Assembly: GCA_027031765.1 (NCBI GenBank)
Contig: JALVPN010000200.1
Location: 1 to 9,188 of the forward strand
Direction: 5' to 3'
Length of the DNA stretch: 9,188 nucleotides
Origin: Promethearchaeota archaeon
GTDB lineage: Archaea; Asgardarchaeota; Thorarchaeia; Thorarchaeales; Thorarchaeaceae
A model generated the notes under the pieces. The model had not been told where the DNA came from and made no database searches. It saw only the letters and a list, made by a program, of their open reading frames with translations. Both the position numbers and the translations under genes were made by a program. Shown piece by piece: positions 548 through 9,188 of this stretch. The first letter of the stretch is position 1, and the number at the start of each line of letters is the position of its first letter.

Positions 548-549
548 AC

Positions 550-582
550 TGGGGCCCTCTGAGAGAGGACAGGACAGCCCCA
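550..582 (+). terminator. GC-rich hairpin just after the ACAD stop (possible 3' end structure)
   Basis: TGGGGC 550-555 pairs with GCCCCA 577-582 and encloses CCTCT 556-560 / AGAGG 564-568. No U-tract follows. Confidence 0.35.
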
Positions 583-838
583 CTCAGTAGCACCGGGGGC
601 GGTCACACGGCAGTGGCCCGGGTGGTCGTAGTGGGGGCACGGTCAGGACAGGCATGCCCCTGAGCATCACCGGTCACAGTATTATTGCATGCACTTGTCC
701 ATCCATTCGACAGCCAAGGGTCGCGGAGTGGGTCAACACCGCGTCACGTATACCCTTCATGTCGCATCCATGAACGGATGCTGTCTGCCCCATCCGGACG
801 GGTGGACAGCCTGTGTTGCCGGCTCGGTATCTCAATGC

Positions 839-844
839 TTAATA
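839..844 (+). promoter_or_regulatory. Candidate archaeal TATA box (TTAATA) for the longin-like gene
   Basis: AT-rich hexamer in a GC-rich context, about 28-37 nt upstream of the GTG starts at 872/881. Confidence 0.45.
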
Positions 845-880
845 GCGGCGTGAGGACTGGTGGGCAGTGGTGTGTTCTCA

Positions 881-1441
881 GTGACAAAGATCGAGTACCT
901 GATGGTCTACACTCATGGCGGCCTCCCTATCTACAGCAAATGTTTCGGACACTTCTGCCAGACCGCATTCAAGAACCCCGAGTTGTTGACCGGCCTACTT
1001 TCCGCCCTCGAGTCAATCCCTCCGACCCTTGGTGACGGCCTGTCTCTTGAAGCCGTGAAGATGGGCTACACGACAATGCGGTTCTCAAAGGTCATGCCCG
1101 GTGGTCAGTCCGTCGTGATCGGGCTGTCTGAGGACGACCTTGCCACGGCGGAGGCCGTGTTCAATGGTGTCAAGCAGCTGTTCGAGCTTGACAAGTTCAA
1201 AGACGTAGACTGGGGTTACGTCCGCCGTGATATCGTGGACGCGTTCACCCAGGAGCTGGTCGACAGGGTACTTGTGGACGTAATGCACGAGAGGGGTGGC
1301 TTCCACGACGAGTGCCCCTTGGGTGACATGTGCCCGATGCACACGCGGGCCGACACTGCGGACAGCCGTGGGATCTGGAGTATCATCCGGTCAAAGTATG
1401 ACGAGTTGCGGCGCAGGATGCGGGCAAAAATGGGGGAGTGA
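881..1441 (+). CDS. Longin-fold-like protein (Asgard eukaryotic-signature type) with C-terminal Cys/His extension, 186 aa; alternative GTG starts at 872 and 860
   Basis: Segment order fits the longin beta-beta-alpha-beta-beta-beta-alpha-alpha fold: IEYLMVYT-HGG-LPIYSKCF, NPELLTGLLSALESI, LEAVKM, TMRFSKV, SVVIGLS, LATAEAVFNGVKQLF, VDAFTQELVDRVL. The N-terminus resembles the 'I..l.I...gGl.iy.k.f' start of TRAPP/AP-sigma-type longins. GGTG at 869-872 could be an RBS for 881. Recognised by eye only. Confidence 0.72.
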   Translation: MTKIEYLMVYTHGGLPIYSKCFGHFCQTAFKNPELLTGLLSALESIPPTLGDGLSLEAVKMGYTTMRFSKVMPGGQSVVIGLSEDDLATAEAVFNGVKQLFELDKFKDVDWGYVRRDIVDAFTQELVDRVLVDVMHERGGFHDECPLGDMCPMHTRADTADSRGIWSIIRSKYDELRRRMRAKMGE

Positions 1442-1451
1442 CCCCGGGACC

Positions 1452-1514
1452 GTTGTTGGGCTGCGTGCTGCCCGCACAACCCTGTCTTACCAAGGCTGAC
1501 ACGTCGTCCTTGGT
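1452..1514. terminator. Two hairpins between convergent genes (possible bidirectional terminator or 3' end stabiliser)
   Basis: GTTGTTGGGC 1452-1461 pairs with GCCCG-C-ACAAC 1470-1480 (one G-U, one bulge). ACCAAGG 1489-1495 pairs perfectly with CCTTGGT 1508-1514. Confidence 0.5.
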
Positions 1515-1515
1515 G

Positions 1516-3288
1516 TCAGAGCACCTCAAAGGCGACAATCCTGTACTCGTCGTCCATCTGCTGGAGCACGGCGTGGAAGCCGTCGCCAACACGTACAGAC
1601 AGCAGCTCGTACCAGTCATCAAGAGGCATCCACTCCCTCGTGCCCTCAATCCACTCGTACGTGGAGTTGTCTGTCCGGAGGACAATGTGGGTGTCACCCT
1701 CGTACACGTAGGAGCTGATATTGAGGACGGTTGCACTGAGCTCCACGGTACCTGTTGAGGGGTGGAGTGCATCCCTCACGGTCTGGACGTACCCCTCACG
1801 CACCTGTCTCACAAGGACCTCCCCCGTGACCGTGCCCCCACGTGTGAGCAGGTACTTTATCGTGGGGTCTTGCGCGTCGGCGATGGCGAAGGCGTGGAGC
1901 CGGATGTCAGTGATATAGTACTCTTCTGCGTCCGAGTCATAGTAGCCGTCGTACCAGTAGATTGGGCAGTACCATGCGTAGCGCATGACCCCCGGTGCTA
2001 TCTCGACCGGGTACAGCAGCGGCATGGCCCCAAAGTACGACCCGGAGGTCGGGTTCGGGAGCCCCTTTATGACCTCGTTGGTTGCAGCCTCACCGCTGAT
2101 CAGTGTTCCATTCGGAAAGGTGTGGAAGAATATCCCATCACGAGTGGCACGCATGATCCCGCTCAGGGTCAGGCTCGTTGACTCCGGTGGGTTCACCGCT
2201 ACAAGTGCCTCGACCCGCCCGTTGTCGGGGTTGATTATGTACCTCGTGTCCTCCGTCATCTCGAGCCTGTCCCTTGACGGCTGGACGACCCACAGGAAGC
2301 CCCCTGCGAACAGGTCGAAGCCGTCACCGCGTCTGTAGGCGCCCCACCTGTTGACCTGGCGTTCCAGCCACTCTTCACTGTAGACCTGTGAAACCCACGT
2401 TGGCGTTTCCTCTATGGTCGCATATCTCCTGACAGTGCCGTTCGAGCAGTATATCACCGGGCCCAGTGGCCGTTCCACCAGGTCCCAACCAATACTGGTC
2501 CTTGTCTGGATGTATACAAGGTTCCCCGCGGGGTCCCATGTCGGGTAGGCATACTCGTACAGCTCTGTCATGTCATTGAGGTAGTTCCTGAAGTGTATGT
2601 TCTGGTCCCAGAACAGGCCCTCCCCGGGCATCGTTGTCGGGATGTCCTCTATCACTTCTATCATCGCGGGGTCGTTCGCATCGACGACAACGAGGCTCTG
2701 GATGTAGTTCTCGGCCAGCACATTGGTGGAGACGACCACGCAGACCCAGACCAGCCGCCCATTCCGTGTCGTTATGTGGGTCGCGGCCACCTCGACATTG
2801 GAGCCTATCCCTGCAAAGTACTGTCTCGCAACAAAGGCCGCGTACTCGCCGGTGACCAGTCGTACCATGTTGTCTGGTATCGGACTGTTGAACAGTGGCT
2901 CGTCGGTCACCGTGATGAACGTGTCCACTGACTCGGCATTGGAGAGGCCTGATGTCCAGACAGCGATGCTCGTGAATGTCGGCAGTGTGACAATCATGAC
3001 CATTGCCACGCACATCACCGGGGTCTTGAAGTGCCTCAGGGAGGGTGGTCTCTTGCGTGGCATCCCGCTTATCAACAGCAGTACCATCCATCCATAGGCA
3101 AGCCCTACCACAGCCCACGGCAGTGTGGTCATTGTGGCCACAGTGGTCAGGGCCCAGACCAGCACCGCCCACAGCAACCTCAACGGCAACCAACGGATCA
3201 GCCGGCCAAAGCTCAGCATCCCGTCCTGATACGGGAACGGCATGCTGTACACGACAATGCAGACGAGGAGAAACAGTAGCATGTTCAA
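1516..3288 (-). CDS. Uncharacterised membrane-anchored protein, 590 aa: about 4 N-terminal TM helices and a large extracytoplasmic domain
   Basis: Long ORF with a TTG start 7 nt after GGAGG (3300..3296); an in-frame ATG at 3282 is an alternative. The first ~112 aa are hydrophobic, with a basic loop (PRKRPPSLRHFK) before the last TM. Four N-x-S/T sequons in the soluble part (NGT twice, NIS, NST). Confidence 0.88.
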   Translation of the reverse strand: MNMLLFLLVCIVVYSMPFPYQDGMLSFGRLIRWLPLRLLWAVLVWALTTVATMTTLPWAVVGLAYGWMVLLLISGMPRKRPPSLRHFKTPVMCVAMVMIVTLPTFTSIAVWTSGLSNAESVDTFITVTDEPLFNSPIPDNMVRLVTGEYAAFVARQYFAGIGSNVEVAATHITTRNGRLVWVCVVVSTNVLAENYIQSLVVVDANDPAMIEVIEDIPTTMPGEGLFWDQNIHFRNYLNDMTELYEYAYPTWDPAGNLVYIQTRTSIGWDLVERPLGPVIYCSNGTVRRYATIEETPTWVSQVYSEEWLERQVNRWGAYRRGDGFDLFAGGFLWVVQPSRDRLEMTEDTRYIINPDNGRVEALVAVNPPESTSLTLSGIMRATRDGIFFHTFPNGTLISGEAATNEVIKGLPNPTSGSYFGAMPLLYPVEIAPGVMRYAWYCPIYWYDGYYDSDAEEYYITDIRLHAFAIADAQDPTIKYLLTRGGTVTGEVLVRQVREGYVQTVRDALHPSTGTVELSATVLNISSYVYEGDTHIVLRTDNSTYEWIEGTREWMPLDDWYELLSVRVGDGFHAVLQQMDDEYRIVAFEVL

Positions 3289-3520: not shown

Positions 3521-4060
3521 TCAGTCGGTGCCCTCCTCTATGGCCTCCCAGTCCATGCCGCCGTCGGCAACGAACTTCTCGACTGCCCCGCCAGCTCTGA
3601 GGAGCCCCATCAGGAACGGTGGGAGCGGTTCGAACTCCAACGGTTCGCCCGTTTCCACGACGACCGCATACCCTTTCTCAGGGTGGACTTCAAGTTCTGC
3701 ACCCTCTGCCACCAGGGGTGCTGAGTAGTGCAGTGCAAAGGCCGGCAGGCCCACATTGATGGCGTTCCTGAAGAATATCCTTGAGAACGTCTCGGCGATG
3801 ACGCACGATATCCCGAGCTCACGGAGCACCATCGGGGCCTCCTCCCTCGAAGACCCGCTGCCGAAGTCCCGTCCTGCAAGGATGATGTCACCACGCCTGA
3901 CCTCGGACGCAAAGTCGGGTCTCAATGGCTCCATTGCGTGCCTTGCCATCTCCGAGTAGTCCAGTATTGTGAGGTAACGGCCGGGGATGATCTGGTCGGT
4001 GTCCACATTGTCACCGAAGAGCCAGACCCGGCCACGGAGCACATGCAGGTCCCTCATCAC
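3521..4060 (-). CDS. leuD: 3-isopropylmalate dehydratase / homoaconitase family small subunit (archaeal-type LeuD/HacB), 179 aa
   Basis: GRVWLFGDNVDTDQIIPGRYL, AGRDFGSGSSREEAP, VIAETFSRIFFRNAINVGLP. GTG start at 4060 overlaps the leuC stop (GTGA); ATG at 4057 is an alternative. GGAG RBS at 4070..4067. Family is secure, substrate is not. Confidence 0.92.
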   Translation of the reverse strand: MMRDLHVLRGRVWLFGDNVDTDQIIPGRYLTILDYSEMARHAMEPLRPDFASEVRRGDIILAGRDFGSGSSREEAPMVLRELGISCVIAETFSRIFFRNAINVGLPAFALHYSAPLVAEGAELEVHPEKGYAVVVETGEPLEFEPLPPFLMGLLRAGGAVEKFVADGGMDWEAIEEGTD

Positions 4061-5325
4061 ACCACACTCCTGGGGTCTGTTATCTTCCCTGTGACTGCGC
4101 TGGCGGCCACAGTCGCCGGCGATGCCAGGTACACCTGTGACTCCCTGTCCCCCATCCGTCCCCTGAAGTTCCGGTTGGAAGTGGAGATGCAGACCTCATT
4201 CCCGGCCAGCACGCCGAGGTGTCCACCCACGCAGGCACCACAGGTCGGGTTCGTGACCACAGCCCCAGCCTCTGTGAGGGCCTCGATGTAGCCGGCCCTG
4301 AGGGCCTCCAGATAGACCTCTCTGCTCGCTGGCGTGACGATGAACCGCACACTGCGGTGCACCCTGTGTCCCTCCATCACCTGCGCGGCAAGTGCTATGT
4401 CCTCGAGCCTGCCATTGGTACAGGAGCCGAGGAAGGCCTGGTCTATCCGTATCCCCTCGTAGACGGAGACCGGGCGCACGTTGGTGGGGAGGTATGGCCC
4501 CGCCACCATGGGCCCCAGCTCCTCCTCAGACAGGTCTATCCTCATCACCCTGTAGTACTCGGCGTCCTCGTCCGGCTCAACAGCGTCCCAGTCCGCCCCC
4601 GGGGCCCTCCGTTTGAGCCACTCCCGCACGGCATCGTTCACACCCATCATTGCCGTCTTTGCCCCCGCCTCCACGGACATGTTGCACGTGGTCATCCGGG
4701 AGGCCACGCTCATCCTGTCCACCAGCCCTCCGTGGAACTCCACCGCCATGTAGTTGGCCCCATCAGTACCGAGCTCTCCGATGACCCGCAGGATGAGGTC
4801 CTTGCTGGTCACCATCTCGGGGAACTCCCCCTCTATCTCAACACGGATGCTCTCTGGCACCCTGAACCAGCACTTGCCGGTGGCAATTATCACTGCGGAG
4901 TCAGTGGCCGCAAGACCCGTTGCAAAGGCATTGAACGCACCATACGTATTGGTATGGGAGTCACAGCCTACGATGAGCTCGCCAGGTCGTGCCAGCCCCG
5001 CCTCAGGTAGCACCTGATGGCATATCCCCTTTCCCACGTCAAAGAAGTGGGGGATGCCGTGTTCGCTGACAAACTGGCGGTTGCGGCGGTGGATCACTGC
5101 GCTCCTGATGTCCGGTGCCGGCGCCCAGTGGTCGTTGACGACAACAATGTCCTCCGGGTCCCAGACCCGCGTGACGCCCATCCTGTCGAGCAGTGGGATG
5201 ACACGGGAACCGAGCACCTCGTGCACCATCAGCCTGTCCACCCTCGCGACTATGAACTTGCCCGGACGGACAGTCCCCCGTACAACGTGGGACTCCAGGA
5301 CCTTCTCGGCCATCGTCTGTCCCAA
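4057..5325 (-). CDS. leuC: 3-isopropylmalate dehydratase / homoaconitase family large subunit (LeuC/HacA), 422 aa
   Basis: TTG start at 5325 gives the canonical MGQTMAEKVL N-terminus, 6 nt after GGGTGAT. Motifs DHWAP, GICHQV, GCDSHT, and the three [4Fe-4S] cysteines in FLGSCTNGR and PTCGACVG, plus STSNRNFRGRMG and YLASPA. The ORF-track extension to 5514 overlaps leuB and is rejected. Confidence 0.93.
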   Translation of the reverse strand: MGQTMAEKVLESHVVRGTVRPGKFIVARVDRLMVHEVLGSRVIPLLDRMGVTRVWDPEDIVVVNDHWAPAPDIRSAVIHRRNRQFVSEHGIPHFFDVGKGICHQVLPEAGLARPGELIVGCDSHTNTYGAFNAFATGLAATDSAVIIATGKCWFRVPESIRVEIEGEFPEMVTSKDLILRVIGELGTDGANYMAVEFHGGLVDRMSVASRMTTCNMSVEAGAKTAMMGVNDAVREWLKRRAPGADWDAVEPDEDAEYYRVMRIDLSEEELGPMVAGPYLPTNVRPVSVYEGIRIDQAFLGSCTNGRLEDIALAAQVMEGHRVHRSVRFIVTPASREVYLEALRAGYIEALTEAGAVVTNPTCGACVGGHLGVLAGNEVCISTSNRNFRGRMGDRESQVYLASPATVAASAVTGKITDPRSVV

Positions 5326-5332
5326 GACAGCA

Positions 5333-6490
5333 TCACCCTTCAACCAGCACTGACACCCTCTCCGCAATGGCACGACCAACAGCACTGGTGCTTGAGGGCT
5401 GTACTGCAGCCCACGGCCCCCTGCACAGGTCTGCAGTCCTGACCTGCCCTTCGCGGAGGACATCGGCCACTGCGCGTTCGACAGTTTCAGCAGCATCCCA
5501 GCATGACCTGTCACCGTGTCGGTCGCCCAGCCAGCGGAGCATCATTGATGTGGCGAGGACTGCGGCCACAGGGTTGGCGGTGCCCTGGCCGGCATGACGC
5601 GGTGCTGACCCATGGACTGGTTCGAATACACCATGCCCGTCCCCTATGTTGGCCGCGGGTGCCACACCCAGGCCGCCCTGTATGGCCGCACCAAGGTCTG
5701 TGATGATGTCACCAAAGGCGTTGGGGGCAACAACCACATCGTAGAACTGGGGCCTGCGCAGACACCACTGTGTCCATGCGTCGACGTATGCATAGTCCAC
5801 AGACACACCGGGGTACTCTCCTGCCACCTCGTCGAAGACCCGTCGGAAGAGCTGGCAGCCTGCGAGCAGGTTGCTCTTGTCAACACATGTCACGCGCCGG
5901 ACGCCGTCCAGTGGCGCACCGTTTCTCTCCATGCTCAGCCTGAACGCCTTTCTGATGACCCTCAGGGCCCCATGGCGGGTGATCACTCGCGTGTCTATTG
6001 CTATCTCCTCGACACCGCCCCTCTTCATTATCCCCCGTGTCGGTGTATATAGCCCCTCTGTGTTCTCCCTGACTATCACCATGTCGATGTCCTTGTGTGT
6101 GACCCCATAGAGCGGTGTTGGCACGCCCTCGAAGAGCCTTACTGGGCGGACGTTCGCGTAGAGGTCCAGGCCAAAACGGAGCCCGAGGACAATGTTATAC
6201 CCGGCAAGGTTCCCGTCCGGGAGGCGCACTGGCTGTCCGGACGCGTCCTCGGCACCCACAGCACCCAGGAGCACTGCGTCCGCCTGGCGCTTTGTGAACT
6301 CCTCCGCCTCCTCTGTCCACTCCTTTCCAGTCCTCACATAGTACTGGCCGCCACACTCGAACTCGTGCACCTGGAACTCTGCCCCCCGGAGTGCGTCCTG
6401 TGCAGCACGCAGCACACGCAGCGCCTCAGTCACGACCTCCGGGCCAATCCCGTCACCCGGGAGCACCGAGATGCGGTATGTCCTGGTCAC
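5333..6490 (-). CDS. leuB: Isocitrate/isopropylmalate (beta-decarboxylating) dehydrogenase family protein, LeuB-like, 385 aa
   Basis: LPGDGIGPEV, LRFGLDLYANVRP, VRENTEGLY, VDKSN, NAFGDIITD, FEPVHGSAP. GTG at 6490 lies 6 nt after GGTG (6500..6497); alternative starts at 6499 and 6496. Family is secure, substrate and cofactor are not. Confidence 0.9.
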   Translation of the reverse strand: MTRTYRISVLPGDGIGPEVVTEALRVLRAAQDALRGAEFQVHEFECGGQYYVRTGKEWTEEAEEFTKRQADAVLLGAVGAEDASGQPVRLPDGNLAGYNIVLGLRFGLDLYANVRPVRLFEGVPTPLYGVTHKDIDMVIVRENTEGLYTPTRGIMKRGGVEEIAIDTRVITRHGALRVIRKAFRLSMERNGAPLDGVRRVTCVDKSNLLAGCQLFRRVFDEVAGEYPGVSVDYAYVDAWTQWCLRRPQFYDVVVAPNAFGDIITDLGAAIQGGLGVAPAANIGDGHGVFEPVHGSAPRHAGQGTANPVAAVLATSMMLRWLGDRHGDRSCWDAAETVERAVADVLREGQVRTADLCRGPWAAVQPSSTSAVGRAIAERVSVLVEG

Positions 6491-6499
6491 CCGCACCAC

Positions 6500-6832
6500 C
6501 TAGTAGTTCCCAAGCCACCCGAGGTCATTCCCGTGGTCGTCGATGATACTCACCACTGTGTCTACCCGCTCGCCGTCGACGTACCGTGTCTTGCACCTGA
6601 TAGTGAACTCCCTCCCACACCTTTCACAGCGCACACGCCAGTCCTCGACCACAGGTTCCAGTCCGTGCCCCTGCAGCTCCTCCTCCGGTGTACGGGTCAC
6701 ACCGAGTAGGCTGAGTTCCTTCCCGTCACACGCGTATGTGCACTCCTTCAGTGGTATTGGCTCCATACCCCTCCTACCGAGGGGCACGAACACCTTGTCT
6801 GGTAGTTCATCAAGGCTCCTCTGTCCGTTCAC
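6500..6832 (-). CDS. Small hypothetical protein with putative zinc-ribbon (C-x3-C ... C-x2-C), 110 aa; alternative GTG starts at 6841 and 6850
   Basis: ORF fills the gap between leuB and the divergent promoter region, and its TAG stop overlaps the leuB RBS. AGGTG (6843..6839) lies 6 nt before GTG 6832. Contains CTYAC, CERC and one further Cys. Confidence 0.78.
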   Translation of the reverse strand: MNGQRSLDELPDKVFVPLGRRGMEPIPLKECTYACDGKELSLLGVTRTPEEELQGHGLEPVVEDWRVRCERCGREFTIRCKTRYVDGERVDTVVSIIDDHGNDLGWLGNY

Positions 6833-6856
6833 TGACCACACCTGTGGCACCTAGAC

Positions 6857-6882
6857 TACCAGTACGGATAAATCCGCTGGTA
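6857..6882. promoter_or_regulatory. Palindromic element with central TATA-like core between divergent transcription units
   Basis: TACCAG-TA-CGGAT-AA-ATCCG-CTGGTA. The centre reads ATAAAT on + and ATTTAT on -, and it is the only AT-rich patch in this intergenic region. Confidence 0.6.
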
Positions 6883-6896
6883 TCGTAGTGGGGCAC

Positions 6897-7835
6897 ATGC
6901 GTCTGATAACATACTCCCGGCTTGGGGTCCCATCCATTGGTGTCGAACTGGATGGGGGCGTGCTCGATATTCCCGAGGCCGCCTCCTACTTTGGGAGGCG
7001 GTACCATGTCCATGGTCACAGCTTCCCACGTACCATGCTCGACCTCTTGGACTGGGACGCTGGAGTGTCCGTTGTCCGTCAGATACTCGACCGCTACCTC
7101 TCTGCTGGTCCTGATGGGCGTCCAATGGTGTACCCATGGTCTGACATCCGCCTCGAGGCACCTGTCCCACGTCCACGCAAGGTCGTCGGTCTGGGCCTCA
7201 ACTACCGTGACCACGTAGAAGAGGCCGGTCTGGAAGTGCCAGAGTTCCCAGTCATCTTCGCAAAGTTCCCGTCAAGTGTGGTCGGTCCCGACGCGGACAT
7301 CGAGCTGCCGGAAGTGACGCGGGCCCTCGACTGGGAGGTGGAGCTCGGGGTCGTGATTGGACGTACATGCAGACGGGTATCCGAGTCAGACGCACTCGAC
7401 TACGTGGCAGGCTACACGGTGGTCAACGACCTCACGGCCCGCGACCTGCAGGCCAGCGATGGTGGTCAGTGGGTGCGTGGCAAGTCCCTTGACGGCCTCT
7501 GTCCCATGGGCCCGTGCATTGTCACTGTCGACGAGCTGGGTGATGGCTCCGGCCTGAAGATGTACACCAAAGTAAATGGTGTGGTCAAACAGGAGTCGAA
7601 CACCGCCAACATGATGTTCAGCGTCCCACAGATCGTATCCTACCTCTCACACTCTTTCACTCTTGAGCCCGGCGACGTGATTGCCACGGGGACGCCCTCG
7701 GGTGTAGGGTACAGGCAGAGCCCTCCCGAGTACCTGCAACCAGGGGACTCGGTCGAGCTCTACATTGAGCGGATTGGGCACCTCCGGAACCGTATCGTCG
7801 CACCTGCAGGCCCTAGTCTGGCCCAGCGTAAGTGA
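6897..7835 (+). CDS. Fumarylacetoacetate hydrolase (FAH) superfamily protein, FAHD/HpcE-like, 312 aa
   Basis: MRLITY start; PRKVVGLGLNYRDHVEE (lid H-x2-E), PVIFAK, DWEVEL (two metal Glu), NDLTARD (metal Asp), GKSLDG, GDVIATGTPSGVG. Alternative GTG start at 6888. Confidence 0.94.
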   Translation: MRLITYSRLGVPSIGVELDGGVLDIPEAASYFGRRYHVHGHSFPRTMLDLLDWDAGVSVVRQILDRYLSAGPDGRPMVYPWSDIRLEAPVPRPRKVVGLGLNYRDHVEEAGLEVPEFPVIFAKFPSSVVGPDADIELPEVTRALDWEVELGVVIGRTCRRVSESDALDYVAGYTVVNDLTARDLQASDGGQWVRGKSLDGLCPMGPCIVTVDELGDGSGLKMYTKVNGVVKQESNTANMMFSVPQIVSYLSHSFTLEPGDVIATGTPSGVGYRQSPPEYLQPGDSVELYIERIGHLRNRIVAPAGPSLAQRK

Positions 7836-9188
7836 CCCTGATGGTCTGCCCCCTCTTGAACACTCCCGCCACCTGCGTCACCTCGCCTGTCAGGGGCGTT
7901 GCAGACACCTCCCCCTCGTCACTCCTGACACTGGTGAGCGTCATGCCGGGCCCGTGCACCACGAAGAGCCGCTCCACGCCCCGTGAGCCCCTCGCCATGA
8001 CAATTTCAAGCTCGCCCTGTGTGCCGTGCCATGTTTCCCGTTCAATCTCGACAGCACCCTGTGTGAAGTGCATCGTTGTGCCTACAAGCGATGGGTGTGG
8101 CCTCTCCGGACGCAACGACAGCAGCCGGCACGAGTGGGGTGCAACGTCCTCCAGGGTGACCTCCGACTCTGACAGGCCGAGGTACTGTGAGTCCCAAAAC
8201 TCGAAGGTATGCTGCGGCCCCTCCAGGCCTAGGTCATCAAGGTCAAGGGTTACGTCACGGGCCCTGTCTGTGGTATTGACCGCAGCGACAATGGCCCAGC
8301 TCCCACATGCGGTCTCCACCCTCTGGTAGAGGCACGTGGGCTCGTCCGTGTCGAACATGTCCGGCGAGGACGCGCCATGTCCATAAGGCGGCAGTATCTT
8401 CTCCAACACCCTGAGCCCATCGTCGTCCAGCCTGCTGATGCGGTCACCCAGGACGACGACTCCCCCGCTCATTGCCACCACCGAGAGCCAGAGCCGCGTC
8501 TCGTCGGGGGTCAGAGAGTTATTGTCACCACTCACGAGGACTGCGTCCGGACAGCACAGCCACAGTCTGCCGTTGACACTCGACTGCACAAGGGTACTCA
8601 CTACCTTCTCACGTATCCCGCCTCCCCACTCGTCAGCCCACACAGGGATGGTCTCACGGCTGCCATAGACCACGTCCACAAGCCCAGTGCATATCCCCAC
8701 TGGTGCCCTGCTTGCCATCACCAGTGCGTCACCAACCGCAGCCCTGATTGTCTCAAGGCCTGTCCTCAGGGCCTCTGCTGGGGCCCGCGACATGTCGTGG
8801 CGTCTGCCGGCTACCATGGCATCTGCAAGGTAGTCTACCTTGAACAGGTCGTAGCCGTCCTCAACAAGCCCTCTGAACACGCTGTCGATGTGTCCCAGTA
8901 CCCGGGGGTGTGTGAGGTCGAGTGCATAGTAGTCACCCAACCAGAGCGCCTCCGAACCCGCGACCACAGGTCTGTTGTCATCGTCCCTGACGAACCAGTC
9001 CGGGTGGTCCCTGAACAGTGCTGACCTGCGGGACGCGACAAAGGGCGCAAGCCAGATCCCGGGACGCAGCCCGTGCCGTCTGACCATTGTTGCAAGCTGG
9101 CCGAGGCCCCCTCTGAAACGGGGCCCAGCAGTCCAGTCGCCCACGGCGGCCTCGTAGCCGTCCTCAACGAGTACCCACCCCACACGAC
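7813..9188 (-). CDS. GH36 (clan GH-D) alpha-galactosidase-like protein with divergent active-site motifs, 5'-truncated by window edge
   Basis: Frame is open to the window edge. It resembles Thermotoga-type GalA: VEDGYE..VGDW, PGIWLAPF, FRDHPDW, YALDLTHP, GYDLFKVDYL, GLETIRAAVG, RLW..PD, followed by a GH27/36-type C-terminal beta-sandwich. Stop TAG at 7815..7813 gives a 23-nt convergent overlap with the FAH gene. Confidence 0.88.
   Translation of the reverse strand, partial: RVGWVLVEDGYEAAVGDWTAGPRFRGGLGQLATMVRRHGLRPGIWLAPFVASRRSALFRDHPDWFVRDDDNRPVVAGSEALWLGDYYALDLTHPRVLGHIDSVFRGLVEDGYDLFKVDYLADAMVAGRRHDMSRAPAEALRTGLETIRAAVGDALVMASRAPVGICTGLVDVVYGSRETIPVWADEWGGGIREKVVSTLVQSSVNGRLWLCCPDAVLVSGDNNSLTPDETRLWLSVVAMSGGVVVLGDRISRLDDDGLRVLEKILPPYGHGASSPDMFDTDEPTCLYQRVETACGSWAIVAAVNTTDRARDVTLDLDDLGLEGPQHTFEFWDSQYLGLSESEVTLEDVAPHSCRLLSLRPERPHPSLVGTTMHFTQGAVEIERETWHGTQGELEIVMARGSRGVERLFVVHGPGMTLTSVRSDEGEVSATPLTGEVTQVAGVFKRGQTIRVTYAGPD

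Follow-up and report, generated by a model that had tools for sequence, protein, structure and literature searches.

A leuBCD-like operon divergent from a FAH-family gene in Thorarchaeota: a candidate 2-oxoacid chain-elongation module

What pathway is served by an archaeal operon of leuB-, leuC- and leuD-like genes that lies head-to-head with a gene for an FAH-family enzyme and has no gene for a condensing synthase beside it? The question is raised by contig JALVPN010000200.1 (contig C200, 9,188 nucleotides (nt), analysed at its full length and here called the window) of the Promethearchaeota metagenome-assembled genome (MAG) GCA_027031765.1 (G000; 2.95 Mb, 95% complete, 229 contigs). A first interpretation, made from the letters of the DNA and referred to here as the sequence-only reading, held that the FAH enzyme releases a substituted maleate, that LeuCD hydrates it and that LeuB converts the product to a 2-oxoacid. 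Our analysis favors a different answer, one that we regard as evenly poised between right and wrong: the operon may be an orphan 2-oxoacid chain-elongation module that probably acts on an uncharged substrate and has its promoter region in common with the gene of a housekeeping FAH enzyme. The features on which the argument turns are as follows.

3521-4060, minus strand: leuD-like small subunit of an aconitase-family hydro-lyase, 179 amino acids (PF00694; TIGR02087 LeuD/DmdB subfamily)
4057-5313, minus strand: leuC-like large subunit, 418 amino acids from the ATG at 5313, with the open reading frame (ORF) open up to 5514 (PF00330; NF001614)
5333-6499, minus strand: leuB-like beta-decarboxylating dehydrogenase, 388 amino acids (PF00180)
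6500-6832, minus strand: four-Cys all-beta small protein (zinc-type), 110 amino acids, first gene of the operon (from homologues and an AlphaFold model)
6833-6896, no strand: putative shared divergent promoter region, 64 nt, with a TATA-like box at 6868-6872 (six-genome alignment)
6897-7835, plus strand: FAH-family enzyme, about 312 amino acids, monocistronic (PF01557)

All five genes of this divergon (small protein, leuB, leuC, leuD and FAH) are intact, and the tight operon head-to-head with an intact FAH gene that had been described from the sequence alone is confirmed. The small-protein and leuB genes abut with 0 nt between them, leuB and leuC are 19 nt apart, leuC and leuD overlap by 4 nt, and the spacer to the FAH gene is 64 nt. 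LeuB, LeuC and FAH look active, as judged from conserved residues. In LeuC, Cys298, Cys358 and Cys361 are invariant and align to Cys347, Cys407 and Cys410 of Escherichia coli LeuC, the 4Fe-4S ligands; LeuB has R108, R118, R144, Y151, K208, D240, D264 and D268, all of them unchanged in E. coli LeuB, DmlA and Icd; and the FAH metal-binding motifs, WEVELG and NDLTARD, have aligned counterparts in HpcE and in the YisK-type structure 8sky. Counting paralogs, as had been suggested at the outset, gives one LeuBCD set only in G000: the leuB-like gene is its sole Iso_dh-family gene (PF00180) and the leuC-like gene its sole aconitase-family gene (PF00330), and each occurs once per genome in nearly the whole family, which we compared through 18 other genomes from the Thorarchaeota family of G000.

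The sequence-only reading rested on the lack of a synthase. This premise is correct for the window, which contains no HMGL-family synthase gene, and for the G000 assembly, where the genome-wide search gave a single weak HMGL-family match, on contig C91. We rejected that match as a hidden synthase; it is a pyruvate carboxylase subunit B/oxaloacetate decarboxylase alpha-type carboxyltransferase beside a carboxyltransferase gene. The premise fails for the family, in which 16 of the 18 genomes carry a LeuA/homocitrate-synthase-like gene of 421-427 amino acids (about 260 bits; HMGL and HCS_D2 domains), present once per genome and unlinked to the operon. In G009, the distance between synthase and leuBCD is about 45 kb. 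There and in G004, the synthase gene has a nitroreductase-like gene and a 185-amino-acid gene upstream and a convergent 247-amino-acid gene downstream. The two upstream neighbors fill contig C93 of G000 (1533 nt), which ends 44 nt past the second of them, and the downstream neighbor points outward on contig C222 and ends 211 nt before the contig does. Because both flanking genes sit at contig ends, the arrangement points to a C93-C222 assembly gap into which the G000 synthase falls. On the expected strand, C222 closes with 36 nt that read VVFDVICGTAPH and then a stop, a six-residue likeness to the synthase C-terminus that is too short to be significant. A 26-residue likeness at the end of C93 was rejected because it is out of register. 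Scanning metagenome contigs for the exact sequence of the C93 end gave no match, clusters of the neighbor proteins returned the same two contigs only, and the closest synthase reference for G000 shows 73% DNA identity. Across a wider sample of 31 Asgard genomes, synthase and LeuCD co-occur. A caution follows for similar work, namely that a synthase "absent" from a MAG can be an assembly gap. A separate irregularity concerns C91 itself, where the carboxyltransferase frame (G000:C91:24660-25451; L014 4637-5575) has 317 amino acids compared with about 530 in relatives and the next ORF has an unread base; a gap in the sequence is the probable cause, rather than truncation of the gene.

With a synthase in the family, the four-Cys protein and the LeuB-, LeuC- and LeuD-like proteins of the operon would make up one half of a 2-oxoacid elongation module, the half with the isomerase and the oxidative decarboxylase. 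The condensing enzyme would be the 421-amino-acid protein of the LeuA/homocitrate-synthase family encoded elsewhere, adding acetyl-CoA to a 2-oxoacid. LeuCD would then shift the hydroxyl group by way of an alkylmaleate intermediate, and LeuB would oxidize and decarboxylate the product to give a 2-oxoacid one carbon longer. Since the family is without the common Ilv pathway, the input would not come from de novo valine synthesis; it could be 2-oxoisovalerate or pyruvate from peptide fermentation. A class IV aminotransferase is encoded in 16 of the 18 family genomes and in G000.

What could the substrate be? The specificity loops of LeuD and LeuB suggest a substrate whose side chain carries no charge and is small or hydrophobic, as in isopropylmalate, citramalate or D-malate and unlike homocitrate or citrate. 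This inference draws on published mutational work. The LeuD-like protein scores above the cut-off of TIGR02087 (181 bits) and the LeuC-like protein above that of NF001614 (573 bits), and neither reaches the narrower equivalogs (LeuC 489 against a cut-off of 611 for LEU2, TIGR02083; LeuD 162 against 246 for leud, TIGR02084). The best solved relative of LeuD is the small subunit of the Methanocaldococcus jannaschii isopropylmalate/citramalate isomerase (3vba, 159 bits). The specificity loop of the window LeuD, GRYLTILD, contains no Arg, and the core reads YLTI compared with YLVY in the isomerase 3vba and YLRT in homoaconitase 2pkp; it is uncharged as in the isopropylmalate isomerase, without being identical to it. 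Asgard LeuD copies in LysW/lys clusters have the loop KYKYDT. Overall, the pair resembles M. jannaschii LeuCD (MJ0499/MJ1277) in being a two-subunit aconitase-family hydro-lyase with three Cys ligands and an uncharged key loop residue, and differs from it in the loop itself, in the unreached LEU2 and leud cut-offs, and in a host without IlvC and IlvD.

LeuB reaches no NCBIfam equivalog cut-off, the best being PRK03437 (329 against 393), with 251 against 353 for TIGR00169 and 271 against 470 for the D-malate/tartrate dehydrogenase TIGR02089. Its substrate loop reads LAGYNIVLGLR. At position -7 from the conserved Arg, the window protein has Tyr, E. coli DmlA has Trp, and both E. coli Icd and an HICDH-like, lys-cluster homologue have Arg. 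LeuB proteins from leu operons have Glu at or beside this position (at -8 in two aligned IPMDH-type rows). Positions -6 and -4 are Ser and Asn in E. coli Icd; in the window protein, -4 is Val and -3 is Leu. The substrate loop residues of the Thermus IPMDH are Glu87, Leu90 and Leu91, a pattern that the aligned LeuB proteins of leu operons also show; relative to this Glu plus Leu-Leu loop, the window protein has Tyr for Glu and keeps a hydrophobic Val-Leu pair. LeuB shares with 3-isopropylmalate dehydrogenase and with E. coli DmlA (D-malate/3-isopropylmalate dehydrogenase) the fold, all catalytic residues and the hydrophobic Val and Leu at the Leu90/Leu91 positions. The aromatic residue at -7 is its sole DmlA-type feature. 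It differs from IPMDH in having no Glu, from both enzymes in an LPDGNLAG insertion, and from DmlA in belonging to another clade.

This clade membership comes from a quick tree, as does that of the synthase, and the loci behind it were chosen by two peptide patterns, which makes the set biased. In the LeuB tree, four Thor-type Asgard sequences form a clade with 98% support, and its sister, with 93% support, consists of sequences from Thermoplasmata, Poseidoniales and Myxococcota. A loop insertion of the form PxG..AG (LPDGNLAG in the window) is common only to the Thor type and this sister clade, and the sister clade likewise has no Glu. Three Thermoplasmata members (L038, L040 and L044) lie in synthase-leuC-leuD-leuB operons, to which the Thor proteins are 53-54% (LeuB, its nearest non-Asgard relatives), 42-48% (LeuCD) and 42-44% (synthase) identical. 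These operons differ from the window in having the synthase inside and in having neither a small Cys protein nor an FAH neighbor. The genomes that hold two of them, G033 (L038) and G034 (L040), resemble the Thor family in lacking KARI. More widely, KARI was not found in any of the five sister-clade genomes searched (Nannocystis pusilla, a Poseidoniaceae MAG, two Thermoplasmata MAGs and one Myxococcota MAG; G031-G035, holding L049, L042, L038, L040 and L047), even in the 12-Mb N. pusilla. Each of the five has a second Iso_dh gene and a true aconitase. The whole LeuB sister clade may therefore serve something besides de novo leucine synthesis.

The metabolic setting supports the doubt about plain leucine synthesis that the sequence-only reading had voiced. 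LeuBCD is the only such set in the genome, an aromatic residue replaces the IPMDH Glu in LeuB, and the IlvC and IlvD pair occurs in none of the 18 family genomes; neither true KARI (IlvC) nor IlvD was found in G000. Controls and other Asgard genomes gave clear matches in our searches for IlvC, IlvD, LysW, LysA and citrate synthase, so such genes are detectable by the method used. By known routes, G000 and the 18 family genomes are apparently broadly auxotrophic.

The same setting also weighs against an elongation module, as do several other results that we gather here. IlvC was found in 3 of the 18 family genomes and IlvD in 2, never both in one genome; LysW was found in none of the 18; and LysA gave no match above cut-off in any of them, with weak scores only, from frames of 610-630 amino acids that encode pyridoxal-phosphate decarboxylases. 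Because the IlvC and IlvD pair, LysW and LysA were not found in the family, there is no evident known pathway that would consume the product. The key residue of the LeuD loop varies, being Thr in most sequences, Lys in L010 and Ser in G029. The synthase gene itself is unrecovered in the G000 assembly, and in G010 a synthase was likewise undetected. In the tree, the Thor synthase and one stand-alone Asgard homologue form a clade apart from LeuA, CimA and the homocitrate synthases of lys clusters. Finally, the adjacency of FAH and LeuC genes in 16 of 17 genomes, with a TATA box between the two units, could reflect a functional tie with FAH.

How close would that tie be? An alignment of six genomes shows that the 64-nt spacer has a near-invariant core, TCATTTATCCGTAATGG-like, with a TTTAT box at window positions 6868-6872. 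Measured from the box, the FAH ATG (6897) is 25 nt away and the GTG called as start of the small gene (6832) is 36 nt away; 29 nt separate the center of the box from an in-frame GTG of the small gene at 6841. One archaeal TATA box may be common to the two divergent units. The region had been described as tiny and palindromic. Its small size stands and its core is conserved, but it is no more than quasi-symmetric: the flanks (CCA...TGG) mirror each other loosely, and a repeat finder reports no inverted repeat.

The divergon is kept in L005, L007-L011, L023 and L037, and the order FAH, small protein, leuB, leuC, leuD, membrane protein, acyl-CoA dehydrogenase recurs in contigs with a 58-75% identical small protein and also in L037. 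FAH and LeuC are both present in 17 of the 18 family genomes, and in 16 of these 17 they are about 2.5 kb apart; G012 is the one family genome with the two genes on separate contigs (C9 and C22). However, the entire 15-kb neighborhood is syntenic in the family, and conservation of the divergon alone therefore says little on function. Beyond the family, the five-gene arrangement is not maintained. The Promethearchaeia contig L024 carries a leuB-leuC-leuD operon 52-62% identical to that of the window with neither FAH nor small protein, and G029 has an orthologous operon (LeuB 57%, LeuC 53% and LeuD 42% identical) with its FAH gene on another contig. The FAH and small-protein neighbors are specific to this Thorarchaeota lineage, and orthologous leuBCD genes occur in two other Asgard lineages without either. 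In G029, the leuB-leuC-leuD genes (L033, G029:C22, 7206-14155) are preceded on the same strand by genes for a CCG/4Fe-4S protein and for an FAD-binding oxidase of the GlcD-like kind, a pair of D-2-hydroxyacid dehydrogenase components that hints at hydroxyacid metabolism.

The FAH protein is the sole member of its family in G000 (PF01557, 264 bits). Its closest solved relatives, at 205-234 bits, are the C-terminal domain of HpcE, the YisK-type 8sky, and LRA6 (8gsr, L-2,4-diketo-3-deoxyrhamnonate hydrolase), and the match to maleylpyruvate hydrolase 6jvv is much lower at 117 bits. It shares with the FAHD1/Cg1458/YisK/HpcE/LRA6 branch the PF01557 domain and the metal-binding Glu-x-Glu and Asp motifs, and, like YisK and LRA6, it is extended at the N-terminus. 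It differs in reaching no NCBIfam equivalog cut-off (247 against 500 for the LRA6-type hydrolase). We take it to be a FAHD1/Cg1458/HpcE-type enzyme, probably of the oxaloacetate or acylpyruvate class, that would neighbor the operon through lineage-specific synteny and not as a demonstrated member of its pathway.

A different tie between FAH and the operon is the least improbable of the alternatives, and still an unlikely one. The enzyme could be a soluble oxaloacetate decarboxylase or tautomerase that gives pyruvate to the synthase, or it could decarboxylate or tautomerize the 2-alkyl-3-oxosuccinate or enol that LeuB produces. FAHD1-type enzymes are oxaloacetate decarboxylases/tautomerases (PMC12176266), and the presence of a single FAH gene in the genome suits such a role. 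We also found FAH genes with leu genes elsewhere. In an Actinomycetota MAG (L082, 11664-12428) and a Thermoleophilia MAG (L101, 12080-12793), a gene for an Rv2993c-like FAH protein, with the Rv2993c-like N-terminal domain and PF01557 and 44-47% identical to the window protein, closes ilvC-leuA-leuC-leuD-leuB-ilvE-cimA operons. FAH and leu genes have here come together a second time, independently of the Thor divergon, as a functional tie would predict. However, it was seen in 2 of 80 loci only, a set drawn by scanning one genome per species and biased by selection with two peptide patterns; no such role is documented; and the adjacency is missing in other Asgard lineages. In addition, the FAH gene of G030 adjoins one for an IlvD/Edd-family dehydratase, suggesting sugar-acid metabolism.

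The route of the sequence-only reading comes next, and we judge it improbable to nearly the same degree. Here, FAH would cleave an acylpyruvate-type diketo acid to give a maleate or substituted maleate, LeuCD would hydrate this to a D-malate derivative and LeuB would make the 2-oxoacid, in an anaerobic analogue of the gentisate branch formed by HbzF, HbzIJ and D-malate dehydrogenase. HbzF is a direct maleylpyruvate hydrolase (Liu et al. 2013, as cited in PMC5658364), and the Pseudomonas alcaligenes gentisate branch does unite FAH, LeuCD-like and LeuB-like families in one route. The divergon of 16 of 17 family genomes with its TATA box, the Tyr of LeuB where DmlA has Trp, the missing Glu, and a family without Ilv and Lys pathways all fit. 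However, the Pseudomonas branch is aerobic and fed by ring cleavage, and no such feeder was seen in the window, nor was a source of a maleyl-type substrate identified. Comparison with characterized members goes the other way, since E. coli DmlA belongs to a different clade of the LeuB tree and the FAH protein is nearer to HpcE, YisK and LRA6 than to maleylpyruvate hydrolase. Because a synthase exists, co-occurring with LeuCD, and because the FAH neighbor is confined to one family and missing beside the orthologous leuBCD of two other Asgard lineages, the FAH-fed route is unsupported, and no result ties FAH chemically to LeuCD.

Slightly less probable again is a surrogate citric-acid branch, in which the LeuA-like protein would be a Re-citrate synthase, LeuCD an aconitase and LeuB an isocitrate dehydrogenase yielding 2-oxoglutarate. 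Such a branch would suit a genome with no other aconitase-family or Iso_dh-family gene and with none of the citrate-synthase-like (Si) genes that we found in 10 of its 18 relatives. It is opposed by the loops, as LeuD has no Arg and LeuB has neither Ser/Asn nor Arg at the third-carboxylate positions, and by the relatives in the LeuB clade (Thermoplasmata, Poseidoniaceae and Myxococcota), which have a true aconitase and second Iso_dh as well. A variant alpha-aminoadipate lysine synthesis, with 2-oxoadipate as the product of the module and the small Cys protein in the place of LysW, would account for a family without LysA and LysW, for the HCS_D2 domain of the synthase and for the Lys at the key LeuD position in one relative (L010), and is very improbable given a LeuB without the HICDH-type Arg, a synthase outside the lys-cluster clades, distant small-protein homologues that are not near lys genes save for one RimK neighbor, and a small protein with no TIGR01206 match that ends in GWLGNY and not in an acidic tail.

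For the last of these reasons, the absence of a TIGR01206 match and the conserved GWLGNY C-terminus in place of an acidic tail, the small protein was rejected as a LysW. What it is can be described mainly by its distribution. It has no Pfam or NCBIfam match and 57 homologues, nearly all from Thorarchaeota, and a conserved N-terminal stretch indicates that the 110-residue form is real, and not the form that begins at an internal ATG. A profile search revealed a wider family, restricted to Asgard archaea, whose members have about 110 residues, four invariant Cys (C-x2/3-C ... C-x2-C) and a GWLG tail, and an Atlas search returned only Asgard hypothetical clusters. The AlphaFold model is all-beta with a pLDDT of 88; Foldseek found nothing against the Protein Data Bank at E <= 0.001, and the best Z in a wide VIA-align search, 5.3, was within noise. 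Distant members adjoin CBS-domain genes (L019) or genes for a large GNAT acetyltransferase and a RimK-type ATP-grasp protein (L020). Because these distant members are not beside leuB, the small protein is a lineage-specific addition to the operon and not a general LeuB partner. Family variants include P0190 (221 amino acids), fused to a longer N-terminal part, and P0212, which is the C-terminus of a 379-amino-acid protein. A complex prediction for the small protein with LeuB scored 0.00 and gave no verdict; we do not use it as evidence either way.

The divergon is flanked in the window by two further genes that bear less directly on its function.

7813-9186, minus strand: GH36 melibiase-like gene, cut by the window end and convergent with FAH (PF02065 and PF17801)
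1516-3288, minus strand: gene for a membrane protein of 590 amino acids, downstream of leuD (N-terminal hydrophobic segments)

The 3' end of the FAH gene overlaps the convergent melibiase gene, which is found in most relatives and is absent in L007. The 590-amino-acid membrane protein has no Pfam match, and its gene is probably a separate transcription unit because the 232-nt spacer between it and leuD contains a TATA-like element of its own, CGTATAAGTA. For these reasons, and because L024 has an unrelated gene in the position after leuD, we rejected it as a member of the pathway. Further along, about 1 kb (window 548-1515) separates the acyl-CoA dehydrogenase gene from the 590-amino-acid gene, compared with 55-222 nt in the relatives L005, L007, L010 and L023. 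This interval contains an ORF of 193 amino acids (860-1441, plus strand) with no Pfam or NCBIfam match.

Homologues of the window proteins carry almost exclusively Thorarchaeota labels. Among public sequencing runs, the sole DNA match to the G000 locus was a hydrothermal vent metagenome, the probable source run, and no RNA run was listed. A sigma-70 promoter and terminator scan of the window was discarded as uninformative for an archaeon. In the literature on Thorarchaeota or Asgard archaea with aconitase, isopropylmalate or citrate synthase, we found no treatment of this module.

Taken more broadly, the comparison suggests a wider idea that we put forward tentatively and consider doubtful, which is that a LeuA-like/LeuCD/LeuB module has been retained, both in Thorarchaeota and in the KARI-less genomes of the wider LeuB clade (Thermoplasmata, Poseidoniales and Myxococcota), to serve a 2-oxoacid or hydroxyacid pathway that is so far undescribed, and that its product is not de novo leucine, lysine or coenzyme B. 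In Thorarchaeota, the module would include an Asgard-specific four-Cys beta protein and be co-regulated with the sole FAH gene. In Asgard reconstructions, such genes are annotated as "leucine biosynthesis" or as "isocitrate/isopropylmalate dehydrogenase" and are credited to amino-acid prototrophy or to the tricarboxylic acid cycle. Here, the module stands alone in a lineage where Ilv, LysW and LysA were not found, and its specificity loops match no characterized enzyme. Assigning its substrate would correct Asgard reconstructions and could reveal a new use of 2-oxoacid elongation chemistry.

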